Positions 2,033-48,623 are shown, counted from the first letter of the stretch. The stretch: DNA of 64,000 nucleotides from Rhodoferax sp. (GCF_023701345.1 NZ_JAMPXE010000002.1:14109-78108); one strand, 5' to 3'. Notes: generated from the sequence alone by a model not told the origin. Translations and numbers: made by a program.

Positions 2033-3403
2033 TCACACCCAGGCGCATTCACAAGTGAAGTGCCGCAAATACTGCGGCTGCTTGGTAATCTTCACACCGC
2101 GGATGCTGGCGGCTTTTTGCTTGACCTCATCAATCACCTCAGCCGCATAGTCGAAGTGGCTCTGCGTGTACATGCGCCGCGGAAAAGCCAACCGCACCAG
2201 CTCCATGCTGTGGTAGGTCTCGGTACCGTCAGGCAGGCGCTTGCCGAACATCACCGAGCCAATTTCCACACCGCGAATGCCGCCCTCCAGGTACAAAGCG
2301 TTGCACAGCGCCCAGGCCGGGTAATGCGCCACCGGCATGTCGGGCAGCACGGTGCGGGCGTCGATGTAAACCGCGTGGCCACCGGTGGGTTTGACAAAGC
2401 CCACACCCGCCGCGTCAAGGCGCTCGCCCAGGTATTCGGCGGTGCGCAGACGGTAGCGCAGGTAGTCTTCCTGCATGCCCTCCTCCAGCCCCACGGCCAG
2501 CGCCTCCAGGTCGCGCCCGGCCAGGCCGCCATAGGTGGGAAAGCCCTCGGTCATGATCAGCACGTTGCGCACCGCGTCCATCCACTCCTCGCTGCGCAGC
2601 ACGATGAAGCCGCCAATGTTGACCATGCCGTCTTTTTTGGCGCTCATGGTGGCGCCGTCGGCATAACTGAACATCTCTTGCACGATGGTTTTGATCGGCG
2701 TGTTCTCGTAGCCCGGTTCGCGCATCTTGATGAACATGGCGTTTTCGGAAAAGCGGCAAACGTCCATGATGAAGGGCTTGCCATGCGCCTTGAGTAGCTT
2801 GGCGTAGGCGCGGATGTTGGCCATCGACACCGGCTGGCCGCCGCCGGTGTTGTTGGTCACGGTGATCATGCCAAAAGGTATCTGGTCACCCCGCTCTTTC
2901 AGCAATGCCTCCGCCCGATCCAAGTCAATATTGCCCTTGAACGGATGGAGGGTGGCGGGCTGCAAGCCCTCGGCAATCACCAGATCGAGCGCCTCGACGC
3001 CCAGATATTCCAGATTGGCGCGGGTGGTATCAAAGTGGCAGTTGTTGGGCACCACGTCGCCTTTTTTACACACTGCGGTGAACAATACTTTTTCTGCGGC
3101 ACGGCCCTGGTGTGTTGGCACAAAGAACTGCATGCCGGTGATGTCTTGAATCACTTTCTCCAGCCGGTAAAAGCTGCGCGCCCCGGCGTAACTCTCGTCG
3201 CCTTCCATGATGGCGCCCCACTGGCGCGAAGACATGGCGCCAGTGCCGGAGTCGGTGAGCCAATCGATCAACACGTCTTCGGCGCGCAGCTTGAACACGT
3301 TGAGTTTGGCGGCTTCCAGCAGTTGCTCGCGCTCAGGCCGCGTGGTCATGCGGATGGGCTCGACACTTTTGATGCGAAACGGTTCGATCAGGGTTTTGGG
3401 CAT
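2033..3403 (-). CDS. tnaA: Tryptophanase (PLP-dependent beta-eliminating lyase)
   Basis: EPFRIKSVEPI, TDSGT, SAKKD (PLP Lys). It has the tryptophanase-type residues HFDTT (Asp), VEIG (Ile) and LRHFT (His), rather than the Thr/Arg/Phe of tyrosine phenol-lyase. Start moved to ATG 3403 (AAGGA RBS). Confidence 0.85.
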   Translation of the reverse strand: MPKTLIEPFRIKSVEPIRMTTRPEREQLLEAAKLNVFKLRAEDVLIDWLTDSGTGAMSSRQWGAIMEGDESYAGARSFYRLEKVIQDITGMQFFVPTHQGRAAEKVLFTAVCKKGDVVPNNCHFDTTRANLEYLGVEALDLVIAEGLQPATLHPFKGNIDLDRAEALLKERGDQIPFGMITVTNNTGGGQPVSMANIRAYAKLLKAHGKPFIMDVCRFSENAMFIKMREPGYENTPIKTIVQEMFSYADGATMSAKKDGMVNIGGFIVLRSEEWMDAVRNVLIMTEGFPTYGGLAGRDLEALAVGLEEGMQEDYLRYRLRTAEYLGERLDAAGVGFVKPTGGHAVYIDARTVLPDMPVAHYPAWALCNALYLEGGIRGVEIGSVMFGKRLPDGTETYHSMELVRLAFPRRMYTQSHFDYAAEVIDEVKQKAASIRGVKITKQPQYLRHFTCECAWV

Positions 3404-3468
3404 GGTGTTTCCTTGCAGGATTTCAAAAAAACCTGAAGGTAGCACCGCCCGAGGGACCGTGGTGTCGG

Positions 3469-3507
3469 TTATTTCCAACAGCGGCCATACGTTTTGTGCC
3501 AATACAT
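3469..3507 (-). CDS. Candidate leader peptide MYWHKTYGRCWK upstream of tnaA
   Basis: 12-aa mini-ORF with 2 Trp and 2 Tyr codons, followed by a small hairpin and a T7 run before the tnaA RBS. No clear SD. Confidence 0.35.
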   Translation of the reverse strand: MYWHKTYGRCWK

Positions 3508-3576
3508 GCGGCGAATGAAATCGCGCAGTCCTGACTTGAAAGGGGTGGATTTAACTTCGGTTGCGCAGCGGCAGGC

Positions 3577-3605
3577 ATTATCCGGATTCAGTTCGTGGGC
3601 AGCAA
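3577..3605 (-). promoter_or_regulatory. Putative sigma70 promoter for tnaA (TTGCTG-17 bp-GATAAT)
   Basis: -35 at 3605-3600, -10 at 3582-3577, 17-bp spacer. This implies a leader of about 165 nt. Confidence 0.4.
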
Positions 3606-3619
3606 ATCCTTGGCCATTC

Positions 3620-3647
3620 GGCAAGCCAGCAAAAACACCGGCTTGCC
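3620..3647 (-). terminator. Stem-loop just after the SDR gene
   Basis: GGCAAGCC / GGCTTGCC arms 13 nt downstream of the stop codon. No strong U-tract. Confidence 0.45.
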
Positions 3648-3660
3648 TCAAGATCGGAAA

Positions 3661-4437
3661 TCAGGGCATGTACTGACCACCATTGACATTGATGATCTGT
3701 CCCGTGATGTAGCCACTGCAGGCATGTGAAGCAAGGAACAAAAAGGTTGGTGCAATCTCTTGCGCGGTAGCAAAACGGCCCATCGGGATGGTGGCATTAA
3801 TCTGGGCGCGCACCGCATCGTTCTTATCGGCATGGAAAGCGGTATCCACGGTTCCTGGTGCCACGACATTAAAACGGACGCCGTCCTTGGTGTAAGACGT
3901 CACCCAATTTTTTTGGATGGTATGGATCCAGGCCTTGGCGGCAGCATAAAGCGAAGCGCCCGGACCACCGCCCATGTAACTCGCAAACGAGCCTACCAGA
4001 ATCACCGAGGATGTGGTACCGCTGGCCTGCGCCGAGGCCTTCAGATGAGGCATCGCGTACTTGGTGACCATGTGCGCCGACCGAGCATTCAGATCGAACA
4101 CCCGATCAAAAAATTCATCGTCAATTTCGCTGATCTGTTTGCGACCGACCAACCCGCCAACGTTGTTGATAACCACGTCAATTCCGCCAAATCGAGCGAC
4201 GAAACGCTCGATCAGATCCTTGCACTCCAGGGTATTACACAGATCGCCCTGAAAAAACTCGGCTTCGCCTCCGATTTGGTGCAAACCTTCAAGCGATTGC
4301 TGCACGCCATCGGTCATTGCCTGTGAGGTGATTCCTATTTTTGCGCCATAACGAGCAAAGGTCTGTGCAGTTGCCAGCCCGATGCCTGCTGTTGAACCGG
4401 TGATCAATACGCGTTTGTCTTTCAAGTCCTTGAACAT
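3661..4437 (-). CDS. Short-chain dehydrogenase/reductase resembling DEH (4-deoxy-L-erythro-5-hexoseulose uronate) reductase A1-R/A1-R'
   Basis: TGSTAGIG, NNVGG and YAAAK motifs. The blocks GGLVGRK, GGGPGA, KNWV, TKDGVRFN, PGTVDTAFHADK, IPMGRF and SGYITGQ match my recollection of the Sphingomonas A1 alginate DEH reductases. Confidence 0.75.
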   Translation of the reverse strand: MFKDLKDKRVLITGSTAGIGLATAQTFARYGAKIGITSQAMTDGVQQSLEGLHQIGGEAEFFQGDLCNTLECKDLIERFVARFGGIDVVINNVGGLVGRKQISEIDDEFFDRVFDLNARSAHMVTKYAMPHLKASAQASGTTSSVILVGSFASYMGGGPGASLYAAAKAWIHTIQKNWVTSYTKDGVRFNVVAPGTVDTAFHADKNDAVRAQINATIPMGRFATAQEIAPTFLFLASHACSGYITGQIINVNGGQYMP

Positions 4438-24993: not shown

Positions 24994-27532
<2,539 letters not shown>

Positions 27533-27536
<4 letters not shown>

Positions 27537-28084
27537 GACTTCACCCCGCTTTGCGCCGCGCTCATGCGCCAGTGAAAACTCACCATGTAGAAACCAGCCA
27601 GCGCCATCAGCAGAAACCCGGGCACCATCAACACCTGGGCAACCCAGATTGGCCAGCCCAGAATCATGCTGGTCTCACCCGCCTCCTTGATCGCCAACGC
27701 CCCCACGGCGGCGCGCCAGGTGATCAGCGCCCCGAACAAGCCCACCAGCAGCGAGCCAAAAGCATCAAGGCGATGCACCGTGGCCGGACTGGCCTTGGCG
27801 GTGAAGAAGTCCACCTTGACATCACCGCCATTGAGGTGGCAGTAAGAAAAAAAGCTGGCCGAGGCAAAAGCGGCCGCCATTTGCAGCATTTCGACATCGC
27901 CGGGCACCGGCGCGGCAAACAGCTTGCGCCCGACAATGCTGATGATGCTCATGACCACGATGGCCACGAACATCAGGCCGCCCATGATGGCCGACACTTT
28001 GGAGGCGCGAAACAAAATTTGGCCTATAGGACCAAAGGCAAGCGAAGCGGCACCAGGGTCGGCACCGGGAATGGGCTCATGCAT
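27533..28084 (-). CDS. TRAP transporter small permease (DctQ)
   Basis: About four TM segments, PVPGDVE, DVKVDFF. Start ATG 28084. Confidence 0.85.
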
Positions 28085-28187
28085 GAACACTCCTACTCTG
28101 ACGCTGCCATCCAGGGACGCATCAAATGGTTGAAATTGGGGGATGACCTGTGTGACGCACGCCACCCAGGTCGAGCCGACAGCTTGC

Positions 28188-29222
28188 TTACTTGACCGCG
28201 TACTTGCTGATCAAGGCGCGTGCGTTTTCCAGCAGCAACTTGCCGTTGGCACCTTTGGCGGTGACATCTGCCACCCAATCCGTGGTGATTTGCTCGCTCG
28301 CCTTTTTCCAGCTTTGGAGCTCTGAGGCAGGAATCACGTTGTGGGTGTTCTTTTCGGTCAGCTTCTTGCCAATGCCATCGGCCGCCAGAAAGGTCTTGCC
28401 GACCTGACCTGACAGGGCCTGGCCGCTGTTGGCGTCGATCACCTTTTTCAGGTCAGGCGGCAGGCTCTCGTATTTGGCCTTATTCATGGCAAAAACGAAC
28501 GTGGAGGTGTAAATGGCGGGCTCGGCCGGGTCGGTCTCGGAATGGAACTTGACCAGCTCCTGGATCTTGACCGAAGGCACCACTTCATAGGGCACCAGGG
28601 CGCCGTCGATCACCGACTTGGCCAGGGCCTCGCTCACGGCCGGCACCGGCATGGCCACGGGGGTGGCACCCAATGCGGCCAGCAGCTTGTTGGTCTGGCG
28701 GGTCGGGGCACGGACTTTCAGACCCTTCAGGTCAGCCATGGTTTTGATGGGTTTGTTGGTCATGTGAAACACGCCATCGCCATGGACGTGCAGCGCCAGC
28801 AGCTTGACATCCTTGAACTCGGCGGCCACGTTCGGATTGGTTTGAACAAAGTCCCACAGCGCCTTGCTGGTGCCCTCCGGGCTTTGCATCATGAAGGGAA
28901 GCTCGAACACTTCAGACAAGGGGAAGCGACCCGCCATGTAGCCGGGCAACACCCAGGTCACATCGACCACGCCGTCCTTGACCTGGTCAAACAGCTGCGG
29001 CGGTGTGCCACCGAGCTGCATGGACGGGTAGATCTGGCATTTCATTTTGTCGCCGGATTCCAGGGCGATCTTGTCGCACCAGGGCTTGATGAACATGGTC
29101 TGGGCGGCCGAGCCGGCCGGCAGGAAGTGGTGCACCTTGAGCGTGACCGTCTGCGCTGAGGCGCTGAGTGCGGCGCAAGCCAGCACTGAGAGTGCCGCGA
29201 AGGATTTAAATGATGCTTTCAT
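28188..29222 (-). CDS. TRAP transporter substrate-binding protein (DctP)
   Basis: Signal peptide, YPSMQLGG, DLKGLKVRAP, GATPVAMP. Confidence 0.92.
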   Translation of the reverse strand: MKASFKSFAALSVLACAALSASAQTVTLKVHHFLPAGSAAQTMFIKPWCDKIALESGDKMKCQIYPSMQLGGTPPQLFDQVKDGVVDVTWVLPGYMAGRFPLSEVFELPFMMQSPEGTSKALWDFVQTNPNVAAEFKDVKLLALHVHGDGVFHMTNKPIKTMADLKGLKVRAPTRQTNKLLAALGATPVAMPVPAVSEALAKSVIDGALVPYEVVPSVKIQELVKFHSETDPAEPAIYTSTFVFAMNKAKYESLPPDLKKVIDANSGQALSGQVGKTFLAADGIGKKLTEKNTHNVIPASELQSWKKASEQITTDWVADVTAKGANGKLLLENARALISKYAVK

Positions 29223-29280
29223 GTTGTCTCCTGTTGTAAAAATAAAACCAAGTTTTCCAGTTCAAATGGTAGCGGTTGTT

Positions 29281-30405
29281 TCAGCGCGCCGAGGCAGGGC
29301 CGGACCAGATCGTGGCGGGCACCATGACCTCGCCCCGCATGATCAGGCGTGCCGTGCGCAGCAAGGCCGCTTGCGTCACTTGCTGCGGGTCTTGCGGGTC
29401 CAGCCCCAGGGCCACGCTGAATTCTCCGGTGGGGTGCTCGACCGATACCGTGGGCGCGTTGCCCGGCTGCATCACGGCCACGCCGTCGCACACCGAGCCC
29501 TTGAGCACACAGGCGGTCCCCACCGTGACGGCGGCCAGCACGCCAATGGCGTCATGGCACACATGCGGAATAAAACTGCGGGTGTTGATGCTGCCACCGG
29601 CGCGAGGCGGCGCAATCAGCGTCATTTTGGGATAGTTCTTTTGCGCCACATCGCCCAGGCCCATCTTGCGCGAAATCTGCAAACGCAGCGCTTCCAGGCG
29701 GCGCTTCAGGTTGTCATCGGCATTGAGTTCGGCCACGCTCTCATAACCGGTGCGGCCCATGTCGGCAGCTTCGATCAGCACCAGCGGCATGCCGTTGTCA
29801 ATGCAGGTCACATCGAGCGTAAAGGGGGCAAAATTTTCGCCAGTGACCGTGATGGTGTCACGTACCTGCCCTGTCGGCAGCAAGCTGGAACACACCGAGC
29901 CGGCGGTATCCAGAAAATTGATGGTGACTGGCGCGGCACTACCTGGAACGCCGTCAATGCGGGCGTCGCCACCGTAATTCACCCGGCCGCCTTGCGTGGC
30001 CACCGTGATGTCGCACTGCATGCCGGTGTTGAGGGTCAGCACGCGCGCTGTGGTGGTGTCACCCTGCACGGGAACCAGGCCGCGCTCGATGGCAAAGGGC
30101 AGCACGGCAGCCAGCATGTTGCCGCAGTTGGGCGTGGTGTCCACGGTGTCGCGCTCGGGCTGCAACTGGGCAAACAAAAAGTCCACCGCCACACCGGGCG
30201 TTTGACTGGTGCTGACGATGCCGACCTTGCTGGTCAGCGGGTGCGCGCCGCCCAACCCGTCGATCTGGCGCCGGTCCGGCGAACCCATCACCGCCAGCAG
30301 CACCCGGTCCCGCGTGGCCACGTCAGCAGGCAAATCCGAGGCCAGAAAAAATGGCCCGCGTGAGGTGCCACCGCGCATGAAATAACAGGGAATGGGAGTT
30401 TGCAT
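29281..30405 (-). CDS. ligU: 4-oxalomesaconate tautomerase (PrpF/LigU/GalD family)
   Basis: MRGGTSRG, QIDGLGG, TSKV, NCGNM, CIDNG, HDAIG, EHPTG. Confidence 0.88.
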   Translation of the reverse strand: MQTPIPCYFMRGGTSRGPFFLASDLPADVATRDRVLLAVMGSPDRRQIDGLGGAHPLTSKVGIVSTSQTPGVAVDFLFAQLQPERDTVDTTPNCGNMLAAVLPFAIERGLVPVQGDTTTARVLTLNTGMQCDITVATQGGRVNYGGDARIDGVPGSAAPVTINFLDTAGSVCSSLLPTGQVRDTITVTGENFAPFTLDVTCIDNGMPLVLIEAADMGRTGYESVAELNADDNLKRRLEALRLQISRKMGLGDVAQKNYPKMTLIAPPRAGGSINTRSFIPHVCHDAIGVLAAVTVGTACVLKGSVCDGVAVMQPGNAPTVSVEHPTGEFSVALGLDPQDPQQVTQAALLRTARLIMRGEVMVPATIWSGPASAR

Positions 30406-45639: not shown

Positions 45640-45746
45640 CTATCTTGTCTCCTCGTTGTGGCACGCGTTTGGCGCGCATGGCTGGATTGTGAAACATTTA
45701 GCCGTCTTGTTCTTGTGATATTCGCACGGGAGAGTTTTCAATAATT

Positions 45747-46697: not shown

Positions 46698-46806
46698 GGC
46701 GTTATTTTGGCTTGATGACAAAACTGGCATTTTGAGACTTTGCGGGTCAGACCACCCGCACAGCGACGTGCTCTGACCCCAGATGATTAGGAATTAGTCT
46801 CTAATT

Positions 46807-46880
46807 TGCTGCAATGCAACAAAAAAAGCTTGCGCAGACTTGGGATCCCCCTATAATTCAAACCATGCTGCACTGCAACA
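46807..46880 (+). promoter_or_regulatory. Phasin promoter flanked by two PhaR-type TGC-rich boxes
   Basis: TGCTGCAATGCAACA (46807-21) and TGCTGCACTGCAACA (46866-80), 14/15 identical, flank TTGCGC (46830-35)-16 bp-TATAAT (46852-57). Confidence 0.65.
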
Positions 46881-46942
46881 TAAACCGGGTTCACTCAGTT
46901 TCGGCGCAGATACCTTTTTACTAAACCTCTGGAGAATTGATT

Positions 46943-47479
46943 ATGCTGACCGTAGAACAAGTGATGGCCTCACAAAAAGCCAATGTTGAAACCCTGTTGG
47001 GCCTGACTTCCAAAGCCTTTGAAGGCGTGGAAAAGATTGTTGAACTCAACCTGAGCGCGTCCAAAGCTGCTTTGGCTGAAACCGGTGACGCCGCCAAGGC
47101 CATGTTGAGCGTCAAAGATGCCCAGGAATTGCTGGCACTGCAATCCGGCCTGCTGCAACCCCTGGCTGAAAAGACCGCTGCTTACAGCCGTCACCTGTAC
47201 GAAATCGCGACCGGCGCTTCCAGCGAGTTCACCAAGGCTTTTGAAAGCCAGGCTGCTGAAGCCCAGCAACAATTTGCCGGTATGGTTGAAGCCGCCGCCA
47301 AAAACGCACCTGCCGGTTCTGAAACCGCAGTGGCGGTGATGAAGAGCTCGGTGGCTGCTGCTACCAGTGCCCTGGAGTCCGTGCAAAAAGCGGTCAAGCA
47401 AGCCACTGACGTGGCCGAAGCCAACTTCAATGCCGTGGCGGCCACCGCTACCACCAAACCTGCTGCTAAAAAGCGTTAA
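46943..47479 (+). CDS. phaP: Phasin (PHA granule protein)
   Basis: [50 protein letters not shown]. Confidence 0.9.
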
Positions 47480-47571
47480 TGTTTGAGTCCGGCAAGTCAA
47501 ACATCAAATTAATTTAAGAATTTGACTTTAAAACCAAGGGGAAACCCTGGCTTGCTTGGTATCATTTGGAA

Positions 47572-47675
47572 TATCGAAAACGAAAGTTTTCCAACCGTTG
47601 TCTCCTCGGGTCCTTTCGAAACCTTCAGGTTCAGGGACTCCTTAAGGGTTGGTCGCAAGACCAACCCTTTTTTTT
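47572..47675 (+). ncRNA. Candidate small RNA with an anti-SD GUUGUCUCCUC seed (resembles betaproteobacterial 'toxic sRNA' architecture)
   Basis: 5' hairpin GAAAAC-GAAA-GTTTTC (47576-91), seed at 47597-47607, second stem, then a strong terminator. TATCAT -10-like hexamer at 47560-65. Confidence 0.6.
47644..47675 (+). terminator. Rho-independent terminator
   Basis: AAGGGTTGGTC-GCAA-GACCAACCCTT, a perfect 11-bp stem running into a T-tract. Confidence 0.9.
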
Positions 47676-47687
47676 GCTCTGTTCAGA

Positions 47688-48623
47688 TCAGGTCGGTGCA
47701 TCCGTCATGGTTCCCGTCAGGGTACCACCGAGCAGTTCAGGCAGGCGATCGATCGGCATCTTGAATCCACTGGCCTGGGCATGGCCACCCCCACCCATGC
47801 TGGCCGCCAGGGGAATGCAATTGAAATCAGACCTGGAGCGCAGGCCGCACTTGACCACCCCTTTTTTGTCGACACTCCAGAGCAAGGCAAAGGTGCCGGA
47901 TTTCCGACACAGCAAATCACCCACCAGACTGTGAAAGACACCGGGTGCATTGACCATCAGTCCAGCCACGCCATTGAAGACCACGGGGCTCGCCGCATCA
48001 GCGATCAATTCGGCCAGCTTTGAAAACTTCTCGTCCATGGCGTGGCCACGTTCGATGAAGGCCGCCAGTTGCACGGCATCCATTTGTGCAATGTACTGCC
48101 AGCGCGCAAAGTCAAACGGCTCCATGTCGAGGGCCGCCAGAAAACTGGCACTTTCAGGATATTGCCAGACCCAGATGTCACGGTCTTCGACAAACCGGAC
48201 CAGATCCGGCACTGGATGTGCCGGATGGAAAAACTCCCAGGCCAATCGGGCGCCCGACTTCTTCATGTCGAAGTGCACCACACCGCAGCAACACACAAAA
48301 CCGGTCAGTTTCTCCGCCGCGCTCAGGTGATGGTCCAGCATGACCAGCTTGGCGGCGCGTTCTTCAATGGCGCGCAAAATAGCTTCACCAAAGGAAAAGT
48401 CCAAAATGTACACGGCGCGCCCGGCCAGCGCCGGCAAGTCATCCACCGACCGGACATCCCCATGGTCGAGGGCCAAAAATTCGGCCTTGCCATGGTAATA
48501 CGTCCAGGCCGCCAGCGCTGCAGCAAAGCCGTCCGGGCAGGTGTGGCCATGGTAAATGATGAGGGGCTGAGGGTCGTTTGGGTCGGGCTTGACCAGCAAG
48601 CTCAGTGGCAATATGGATTTCAT
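47688..48623 (-). CDS. DHH/DHHA1-family phosphoesterase
   Basis: YHG..CPDG, ILDF, LDHH, GGGGHAQASG. Confidence 0.85.
   Translation of the reverse strand: MKSILPLSLLVKPDPNDPQPLIIYHGHTCPDGFAAALAAWTYYHGKAEFLALDHGDVRSVDDLPALAGRAVYILDFSFGEAILRAIEERAAKLVMLDHHLSAAEKLTGFVCCCGVVHFDMKKSGARLAWEFFHPAHPVPDLVRFVEDRDIWVWQYPESASFLAALDMEPFDFARWQYIAQMDAVQLAAFIERGHAMDEKFSKLAELIADAASPVVFNGVAGLMVNAPGVFHSLVGDLLCRKSGTFALLWSVDKKGVVKCGLRSRSDFNCIPLAASMGGGGHAQASGFKMPIDRLPELLGGTLTGTMTDAPT

Follow-up and report, generated by a model that had tools for sequence, protein, structure and literature searches.

Does the DNA behind a phasin gene merely end the phasin transcript, or does it also encode a regulatory RNA? The question is raised by a stretch of 64,000 nucleotides from Rhodoferax sp. 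(GCF_023701345.1 NZ_JAMPXE010000002.1:14109-78108; hereafter, the window), in which the plus-strand gene phaP (46943 to 47479), coding for a phasin, a polyhydroxybutyrate granule protein (Phasin_2; Pfam PF09361, E 1e-28), is followed by an element at 47572 to 47675. An initial annotation had proposed this element as a small RNA (sRNA) with a seed complementary to Shine-Dalgarno (SD) sequences; its observation is confirmed to the base, and its interpretation is supported in part. The closest relatives of the phasin, with 94 to 95% amino acid identity, are found in metagenome-assembled genomes labelled Polaromonas sp. or Rhodoferax sp., and the source of the window is a Rhodoferax/Polaromonas-like member of the Comamonadaceae. 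The element itself lies far above chance and is not a chance hairpin, and we regard it as almost certainly a functional RNA. It is probably a regulatory sRNA of about 80 to 105 nt, and its best explanation, held with the same moderate confidence, is an sRNA encoded in the 3′ region of phaP and forming a Comamonadaceae branch of the RF02278 double-hairpin family. It belongs to a known sRNA family, as a new branch that is linked to phaP and modified in structure, and is not a regulator of a new kind.

Structure, conservation and family of the element

The element lies in the phaP 3′ region and shares with that gene its only strong terminator; all of its features, on the plus strand, fit inside the 208-nt gap between phaP and a convergent DHHA1 gene. 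In the minimum free energy (MFE) fold, a 6-bp 5′ hairpin with a GAAA loop (GAAAAC-GAAA-GTTTTC; 47576 to 47591) is followed by the seed GUUGUCUCCUCG (unpaired GTTGTCTCCTCG; 47597 to 47608) and by a two-tier stem-loop with 8 outer and 5 inner bp (stem-loop 2; 47608 to 47640). A UUAA linker precedes the 3′ module (47644 to 47675), in which the terminator scan called an intrinsic terminator with an 11-bp stem, a GCAA loop (47644 to 47669) and a T8/U8 run (47668 to 47675). Sequence, MFE fold and terminator scan thus placed the 5′ hairpin, the unpaired seed, the second stem and the terminator where the initial annotation had seen them. The RNA from 47572 to 47680 folded at −36.9 kcal/mol (z = −4.0), and none of 200 shuffled sequences folded as well. 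The mean unpaired probability was 0.66 for the seed versus 0.33 for the 3′ part. By analogy, the layout of the UUAA linker and U tail resembles the Hfq-binding 3′ module of enterobacterial sRNAs. The loop of stem-loop 2 reads CUUCAGG; of CU-rich sequence, the window clade (the window, L001, L002, L010 and L170) has only ACUCCUU, in the 3′ arm and linker.

Eighty phasin loci were fetched from contigs representing one genome per species, with the phasin protein as the anchor, so that the set is unbiased by RNA sequence. The loci cover four genera, Rhodoferax, Polaromonas, Variovorax and Acidovorax, and 79 were assessable, as L057 ends inside phaP. A covariance model, R1, made from 149 distinct sequences with the structure specified by hand, detected a single copy of the element, on the phaP strand and directly behind phaP, in 78 of the 79. 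The sole assessable locus without it was that of Variovorax sp. PvP013 (L075, 3549 to 3780); the phaP 3′ region of this strain has other GC-rich hairpins, and it provides a natural "minus" genome for target comparison. R1 gave one match in the window, at 47597 to 47674 (95 bits, E 4e-21), with a runner-up at 13.7 bits; there was one copy within the 64 kb of the window and one per ±3-kb locus elsewhere.

A second sample was obtained by an exact 17-mer scan of metagenome contigs, which returned 119 loci, 110 of them with at least 300 nt upstream. The phasin gene was directly upstream in 103 of the 110. Four of the seven exceptions were chance 17-mers without hairpins, and the other three were complete elements. 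The position next to the phasin gene that the initial annotation had remarked on is thus real and nearly universal. Loci L091, L107, L122, L124, L132, L135 and L144 were discarded as elements, their hairpins being absent and their 17-mers chance matches. L132 has a 17-nt complement at an aldehyde-dehydrogenase-like ribosome-binding site (RBS) on an unrelated contig, a chance-level event in a collection of that size.

Complete copies were present at L157 (8677 to 8755), L168 (1856 to 1938) and L198 (3226 to 3302), with no phasin gene anywhere in the locus. The neighbour of the L157 element is a gene of the histone-deacetylase family, the one that also lies ahead of phaP in the window; the RNA seems to have remained at this locus when phaP was lost or relocated. 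The L157 and L198 elements are flanked downstream by a clpA-like gene and upstream by a gene on the minus strand, which in L157 is the histone-deacetylase-like one.

The 80 nt from the seed to the U tail are 80 to 97% identical in most Rhodoferax-type loci, in an alignment that starts exactly at 47597; the rest of the intergenic DNA is mostly unalignable, and the phasin proteins are 72 to 95% identical. When 76 phasin-anchored sequences, not selected on the seed, were aligned, TTGTCTCCT, GG and TC were invariant columns, and the seed core UUGUCUCCU (47598 to 47606), the complement of which is AGGAGACAA, was the same in all 76. RNAalifold recovered the terminator, with compensatory pairs at 8 of 10 positions. 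After alignment of the phasin-anchored set to R1, 96.7% of cells were paired, versus 58 to 62% when partners were slid by one column, and compensatory changes affected 13 of the 23 pairs overall. In the terminator they affected 10 of 10 pairs (99.4% paired), and in stem-loop 2, with 94.6% of cells paired, they affected 3 to 5 pairs. The same picture emerged from a MAFFT alignment, made without fitting to the structure. An unpaired 9-mer that stays constant between stems in which all change is pairwise is what is classically expected of an sRNA seed that acts by base pairing. The invariant core and the covarying stems bear out the proposal of a structured RNA with an anti-SD seed rather than a mere terminator. 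A small open reading frame in the element was ruled out by loop indels of 1 to 4 nt among relatives and by conservation that is pair-wise and not codon-wise.

The 5′ hairpin is kept as a structure, with a sequence that is unalignable across relatives. It was found in approximately 80% of 77 distinct relatives, ending 3 to 6 nt before the seed (mean z −1.5), in variants such as GAAAC/GTTTC, GAGAAC/GTTCTC, GAAGC/GCTTC, CTGCAG/CTGCAG and GCCCGC/GCGGGC.

The comparison with Rfam suggested by the initial annotation had a mixed outcome. At the gathering thresholds of Rfam 15, neither the window nor 20 loci gave a match, and a permissive scan of 47400 to 47760 returned only terminator-driven noise, including MmgR at 18 bits. 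Relatives of the element matched RF02278 (Betaproteobacteria toxic sRNA) below threshold. RF02278 was the top match in L071 and L063, which carry shorter Variovorax versions (full model, 36 bits, E 3e-6), and in a 59-kb scan it matched the element exactly in 9 of 10 diverse loci, with 26.6 to 37.9 bits, and matched nothing else. R1 in turn found L071, which was outside its training set, at 39 bits. The chain from the window through R1 to the Variovorax, Polaromonas and Acidovorax elements, and from these to RF02278, supports common descent. The UUGUCUCCUCG stretch at 47598 to 47608, unpaired in the MFE fold, is identical to RF02278 consensus positions 1 to 9 and to ncS27 and ncS62. The likeness to "toxic" sRNAs pointed out earlier is thus more than a resemblance, as relatives match RF02278 and share the Burkholderia seed UGUCUCCUC. 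We consider it highly probable that the element is related to RF02278, most likely as a diverged, phaP-linked branch with an enlarged first hairpin. The Rhodoferax-type RNA is the most diverged, and by the gathering test it is not filed as a formal member of the family.

Transcription of the element

A conserved box, GGGGAAACCCTG, was identified upstream of the element by a motif scan of relatives (47538 to 47549, plus strand). It was present as GGGRAAACCCTG in 97 of the 185 elements with enough upstream sequence, and in 90 of these 97, A + NAT[AG]NT (GATACT, GATAAT, CATAAT, CATACT or TATACT) stood at a fixed offset. Box and hexamer read as TG-n-hexamer, a putative extended −10, and a weak TAGAAA-like −35 sits 17 nt upstream. 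The box and −10 are retained in the phaP-less L198 and L168. In the window clade, the box hexamer has decayed to CTTGCT, and a new TGgTATCAT/TATGAT lies 10 nt downstream. The −10-like TATCAT of the initial annotation is thus present, at 47560 to 47565 and preceded by TGg; the whole extended −10-like motif (47557 to 47565, plus strand) is found in the window clade only, where TGGTATGAT/TATCAT is shared by L001, L002, L010 and L170. The predicted start for such a promoter is near 47571 to 47573. Other clades have GGGAACTCTAC...GGGG-N6-CCCGATACT upstream of the element.

In a Polaromonas-like group and one Variovorax, the seed comes 8 to 10 nt after the phaP stop codon. Such stop-adjacent seeds, with neither 5′ hairpin nor promoter box, were seen in L067, L070, L074, L083, L087, L093, L140 and L071 (653 to 712). 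With this arrangement there is no space for an intergenic promoter, and the phaP transcript or a promoter within the coding region is the only possible source of the RNA. The conserved extended −10 and the three phaP-less copies suggest that the element has its own promoter besides that of phaP. Both routes of biogenesis appear to be used, in different clades, one marked by the promoter-like box and the other by the stop-adjacent seed. An internal promoter was probably added in many lineages.

Between the phaP stop codon and 47644, the terminator scan detected no other terminator. A weak hairpin without a U run directly follows the stop codon (TGTTTGA...TCAAACA; 47480 to 47503, plus strand); it was not called by the scan, RNA contigs cross it, and it is probably not an efficient terminator. 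If phaP mRNA ends at the element's terminator, as we infer, every phaP transcript carries the seed.

The RNA evidence consists of assembled contigs, in which DNA carry-over is possible, and is taken as supportive rather than as proof. Contigs from two sediment metatranscriptomes, X6 (46885 to 47595) and X9 (47441 to 47637), begin in the phaP 5′ or coding region and reach the gap, and an X29 contig extends from the phaP stop codon to within the terminator. On the Acidovorax locus L072, a contig of the rRNA-depleted soil metatranscriptome X71 (3378 to 3723) covers the phaP coding region and the element and ends at the U run; depth falls there, at the homologous terminator, from 76 to 24 in the next contig. 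The phaP-side RNA contigs start at 46885 to 46894. No reads mapped to the element in the raw-read cDNA runs X91 to X93, three of five 2026 runs, which are labelled with the species of a DNA run carrying the Acidovorax locus; the polyA runs X90 and X94 were outside this check.

The phaP contig reached a depth of about 3000 in the oligo-dT runs X24 and X25. Compared with window positions 46800 to 47800, runs X24 to X26 contain a phaP about 91% identical to that of the window, and one of their contigs extends beyond the terminator into the convergent gene. The pattern suggests an associated or contaminating Rhodoferax-like organism in which phasin expression is very high. Because the terminator-crossing contig may be DNA, read-through or the product of priming on an A run, X24 and X25 were excluded from the analysis of transcript ends. 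The A8 run on the minus strand may be such an oligo-dT priming site.

The convergent gene (47688 to 48623), assigned by a domain match to the DHH/DHHA1 type, has its stop codon (47688) 12 nt from the U run of the element (window 47676 to 47690). On the minus strand the terminator hairpin is followed by UUAAGGAG only, so that the terminator looks essentially one-directional. Upstream of phaP, the promoter consists of TTGCGC (46830 to 46835), a 16-nt spacer and TATAAT (46852 to 46857). It is flanked by two copies of the 14-mer TGCTGCA[A/C]TGCAAC (46807 to 46820 and 46866 to 46879), a candidate operator pair, possibly for PhaR.

Candidate targets, mechanism and alternatives

The initial annotation had noted seed complements at two initiation regions of the window, and both are exact. 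The first, of 11 nt, is in the initiation region CGAGGAGACAA of the minus-strand gene lutA (45640 to 45655), with plus-strand TTGTCTCCTCG at 45645 to 45655, 5 nt upstream of the ATG. lutA codes for a CCG-domain protein and is the first gene of a lutABC lactate-utilisation cluster, lutC and lutB following. The second, of 10 nt, is in the initiation region AGGAGACAAC-AUG of dctP, also on the minus strand (29220 to 29232), with plus-strand GTTGTCTCCT at 29223 to 29232 abutting the ATG. dctP codes for the solute-binding protein of a tripartite ATP-independent periplasmic (TRAP) transporter and heads a dctPQM cluster with a PrpF gene upstream. The minus-strand order is PrpF (29281 to 30405), dctP (28188 to 29222), dctQ (27533 to 28165) and dctM (26205 to 27536). 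It is syntenic in at least 6 of 7 orthologous loci (L201 to L206; the upstream gene of L200 has no Pfam record), which suggests a TRAP system dedicated to the PrpF substrate, e.g., an aconitate- or methylaconitate-like or lignin-derived tricarboxylate. The 7-nt match claimed for ipdC is present as well, at the RBS of a thiamine pyrophosphate enzyme gene (384 to 390).

The lutA and dctP sites were the only seed complements longer than 8 nt in the 128 kb of both window strands. Window-wide counts of seed patterns were non-significant (2 versus 0.93 expected and 5 versus 2.16 expected). An unrestricted RNAduplex scan of both strands was uninformative, with GC-rich coding sequences as top hits and control seeds equal or lower, so a scan limited to start regions was used instead. 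Among 63 crude start regions, duplexes with the 12-nt seed were strongest for lutA (−19.0 kcal/mol) and dctP (−17.4), the next one reaching −14.1. Seeds in which UCUCC was kept and the flanks were shuffled equalled the best site in 3.4% and the second-best in 1.4% of 500 trials. phaP's own RBS was rejected as a target, as its SD region, CUCUGGAGAAUUG, gives only 5 contiguous pairs (GGAGA).

Across orthologues, the part of the sites that is kept is shorter. The lutA RBS had GGAGAC in 8 of 12 orthologues located next to phaP, with AGGAGA or weaker in the others, and in the three nearest genomes the 11-nt match shrinks to 9, 7 and 8 nt. The dctP RBS of 7 orthologues (78 to 94% identity), all in the same PrpF-DctPQ context, carried AGGAGACA in 5 cases (6 of 8 with the window included) and AGGAGAC in 6, and the three bases that follow vary freely. 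The GACAA(C) pairing that had been regarded as the added value of these sites is therefore specific to the window and is not kept in the 12 lutA and 7 dctP orthologues, where only AGGAGAC(A) persists. The conserved AGGAGACA is exactly complementary to the invariant UGUCUCCU of the seed, and it is also a frequent RBS form in these genomes, in which C follows GGAGA at about a third of sites and CA at about 11%. On our reading, the seed is adapted to strong RBSs and their spacers as a class, to which lutA and dctP plausibly belong; either of them as a direct target is a tentative proposal, drawn from base complementarity. In L023, the RBS of an acetyl-CoA acetyltransferase (thiolase) gene less than 3 kb from the phaP-sRNA locus is AGGAGACAA, a 9-nt seed complement (minus strand, about position 44 of the reverse complement). 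If real, this site would connect the sRNA with the initial step of polyhydroxybutyrate (PHB) synthesis.

The mechanism that we propose would begin with one of two routes to the sRNA. In the first it would be made as the 3′ end of phaP mRNA, because phaP is without another good terminator; in the second, transcription would probably start at a separate extended −10 promoter between the genes. Where the seed is stop-adjacent, processing would release the sRNA. Hfq would probably bind the UUAA linker, terminator and U tail. The invariant single-stranded UUGUCUCCU would pair with an SD sequence plus spacer of the form AGGAGACA(A) and keep ribosomes from loading on a group of mRNAs which, as the family suggests, mainly concern transport and carbon metabolism. 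The lower translation of these targets would act as a brake on metabolism, again by reference to the family (PMC5688073, PMC10987360). In PHB producers, phaP transcription is derepressed on granule formation following PhaR/AniA logic (PMC8401924, PMC12542648). Through co-expression with the phasin, the level of the sRNA would follow granule formation, and, judging from the position of the element, the brake would engage while carbon is stored. We consider action in trans on RBSs to be rather probable. That the phasin mRNA of Comamonadaceae is a dual-output transcript, with a brake of the toxic sRNA type dosed by PhaR-controlled phaP transcription, is possible but doubtful. The global repressor proposed in the initial annotation, which would join the state of PHA storage to catabolite control, is likewise conjectural.

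Several observations weigh against the phaP-encoded sRNA and its proposed kinship and targets. A sigma-70 consensus scan calls no −35/−10 pair upstream of the element, and the TGgTATCAT promoter is for that reason put forward as a prediction. The element-spanning X71 contig, at a depth of 76, is similar to or below the phaP coding contigs (80 to 150), and contigs alone resolve no 5′ end, discrete short species or excess over phaP mRNA. Regarding the targets, the unrestricted duplex scan gave many stronger hits outside RBSs, matched by control seeds, and the extended complementarity is unconserved in the lutA and dctP orthologues. Furthermore, AGGAGACAA is a fairly common RBS form, found in 5 of 478 distinct contexts, including those of lutA and dctP in the window. 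As for the family, the permissive scan of 47400 to 47760 found no RF02278 match to the window element at E ≤ 10, and all relatives score below the RF02278 gathering score of 50. An nhmmer profile of the family compared with four Burkholderia double-hairpin RNAs gave non-significant, terminator-level matches only. As homology is thus not demonstrable from sequence alone, the link to RF02278 rests on the matches to intermediate relatives.

The element could instead be an ordinary phaP terminator preceded by a CU-rich spacer that looks anti-SD by coincidence. Its strongest single feature is a textbook intrinsic terminator, and most weak Rfam matches in the window are driven by it. However, 76 species-level genomes share an unchanged 9-nt core despite unalignable flanks and phasins that are only 72 to 95% identical, and these genomes, from four named genera, leave no room for an artefact of near-identical sequences. 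In addition, the stem varies freely by compensation and the unpaired seed never does, and relatives have position-exact, sub-threshold RF02278 matches. We therefore consider a plain terminator extremely improbable. An RNA that titrates Hfq, another RNA-binding protein or an sRNA would account for the two hairpins, U-rich linker and long U tail, which resemble the enterobacterial Hfq-binding 3′ module, and phaP mRNA is usually abundant (depth of about 3000 in X24 and X25), so that its 3′ end could act by mass. Such a sponge is improbable nonetheless, as neither repeated GGA loops nor any other motif known for protein titration is present in the sequence, and its invariant part is the anti-SD string of sRNAs whose CU-rich region affects growth (PMC5688073).

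A purely cis-acting module of the phaP 3′ untranslated region (UTR), which would control how stable phaP mRNA is or fold onto the phaP leader, without trans targets, agrees with the near-obligatory linkage to phaP (78 of 79 and 103 of 110 loci), with the clades whose seed lies 9 to 10 nt past the stop codon and leaves no promoter room, and with RNA contigs that extend unbroken from the phaP coding region at comparable depth. Nevertheless, the phaP SD offers only its 5 contiguous pairs, fewer than lutA or dctP, three complete copies stand in phaP-less loci, and the Burkholderia RF02278 relatives are free-standing, trans-acting and away from phasin genes. Moreover, neither termination nor 3′ end protection needs an invariant unpaired 9-mer. 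A cis-acting module is thus unlikely, though less so than the sponge, and the phaP-3′-encoded sRNA of the RF02278 type remains our preferred explanation.

On that explanation, the metabolic-brake sRNAs known as a family from betaproteobacteria also occur in a large group of environmental bacteria, in which the Rfam threshold misses them completely and the RNA is physically tied to the phasin gene. R1, with its invariant seed and covarying stems, is a ready model for annotation, and the layouts of biogenesis (own promoter, stop-adjacent and phaP-less) make a good system in which to study the origins of 3′ UTR sRNAs. The riboregulation of polyhydroxyalkanoate metabolism in betaproteobacterial producers is still undeciphered according to reviews (PMC8401924), and the element provides a testable link between PHB storage and the post-transcriptional control of carbon uptake. 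If the proposal is true, the onset of PHB granules throttles the translation of carbon-uptake and catabolic mRNAs of the AGGAGACA type (among them those for TRAP transport and lactate oxidation). Storage would thereby feed back on uptake in a hard-wired manner that is undescribed for any PHB producer.

Comparison with known regulatory RNAs

The closest parallels are the double-hairpin RNAs of Burkholderia. ncS27, ncS03, ncS05 and ncS62 and the window RNA all have a 5′ (U)GUCUCCUC, a hairpin, a linker and a terminator. The shared plan is a single-stranded UGUCUCCUC leading into hairpin 1, an A/U linker and a terminator with U7-8; Burkholderia cenocepacia NcS27, ncS03 and ncS05 have the 5′ UGUCUCCUC seed, double hairpin and U tail of the window element, and NcS27 has, like it, an additional 5′ stem-loop ahead of the seed. 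The published sequence of ncS27 is AUUGGUUGUCGCGCUGCGGCAACCUCCGAAUGUCUCCUCCACC...GGUGGAUUAAGCCCGAAC...GUUCGGGCUUUUUUU, ncS03 and ncS05 start with GUCUCCUCCAUG... and ncS62 with CUGUCUCCUCCAUG... (Sass et al. 2017, supplement; PMC5688073). Overexpression of NcS27 attenuates growth through its CU-rich 5′ region (PMC5688073; PMC10987360). Inhibited growth on (over)expression, as toxicity to E. coli or as attenuation in Burkholderia, is a mark of the RF02278 family (PMC5688073). The CU-rich stretch of RF02278-type RNAs is predicted to cover the RBSs of transport and carbon-metabolism mRNAs (PMC5688073), a predicted mode that the window element has in common with them.

The differences concern both structure and genomic setting. 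The linker is AUUMA in Burkholderia and UUAA or UUCAA here, the window seed is longer than that of RF02278 by a 5′ GUU, and hairpin 1 of the window, a 33-nt two-tier stem, is larger than its RF02278 counterpart. The second CU-rich motif of RF02278 (CUCCUC), in the hairpin 1 loop, is absent from the window element, and most relatives have N4-7 loops without CUCC. The window element is fixed behind phaP, whereas the four Burkholderia copies lie between unrelated genes: LysR/OmpW, glyoxalase/MGMT, exported protein/OsmC and hypothetical protein/membrane protein (PMC5688073). Dispersed copies of RF02278 number 3 to 5 per genome in Burkholderia. Burkholderia ncS35, associated with "phasin" in the literature, is unrelated, a phasin-like gene merely being in its regulon. 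The elements of L043, L044, L061 and L063 also gave sub-threshold matches to anti-hemB RF02837 (20 to 25 bits), ncS54 RF02871 (19 to 21) and MmgR (22 to 25), which probably reflect the shared layout of CU-rich stretch and terminator, not homology. A literature search with the seed string returned mammalian PCR primers only.

Enterobacterial 3′ UTR sRNAs likewise share the terminator of the parent gene, are more strongly conserved than the UTR and carry the seed near the 5′ end of the conserved block. Two types are distinguished, type I with an internal promoter (DapZ, MicL) and type II released by RNase E (CpxQ, NarS, SdhX). The window element shares the terminator of phaP and is co-transcribed with it, as far as the supportive RNA contigs go. 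In 3′ UTR-derived sRNAs, output is tied to the promoter of the parent gene (PMC7038943, PMC7398697).

Among betaproteobacteria, Neisseria NmsR and NgncR_162-163 (RcoF) resemble the element in having unpaired, CU-rich stretches, which in these sRNAs are complementary to RBSs of genes for central metabolism, and Sass et al. cite these sibling sRNAs as structural analogues of the double-hairpin RNAs (PMC5688073). They differ from the element in being tandem genes with no link to a phasin, and the likeness is one of description. Two alphaproteobacterial RNAs belong to PHB circuits or phasin genes. MmgR of Sinorhizobium meliloti is Hfq dependent, has a C/U-rich core, limits PHB, lowers PhaP1 and PhaP2 and is repressed by AniA/PhaR (PMC8401924). 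MmgR (alpha-r8, RF00519 "suhB") and the element have the common theme of an anti-SD-type sRNA in a PHB circuit, but MmgR is not adjacent to phaP and targets the phasins themselves. RF00519 scored 18.1 bits in the window (E 0.21, mostly terminator) and 10 to 25 bits in relatives, below its gathering score of 41. The 0381_3′ RNA of Rhodobacter sphaeroides is a stable 3′ terminus of approximately 75 to 88 nt, with the terminator, of the phaP-like mRNA RSP_0381; differential RNA sequencing hinted at a start site of its own, no promoter activity was found, and its function is unexplained (PMC4179960). It shares the gene context of the element, an analogy of position only. By present comparisons, then, MmgR and 0381_3′ are not homologues of the element but precedents for PHB-linked riboregulation.

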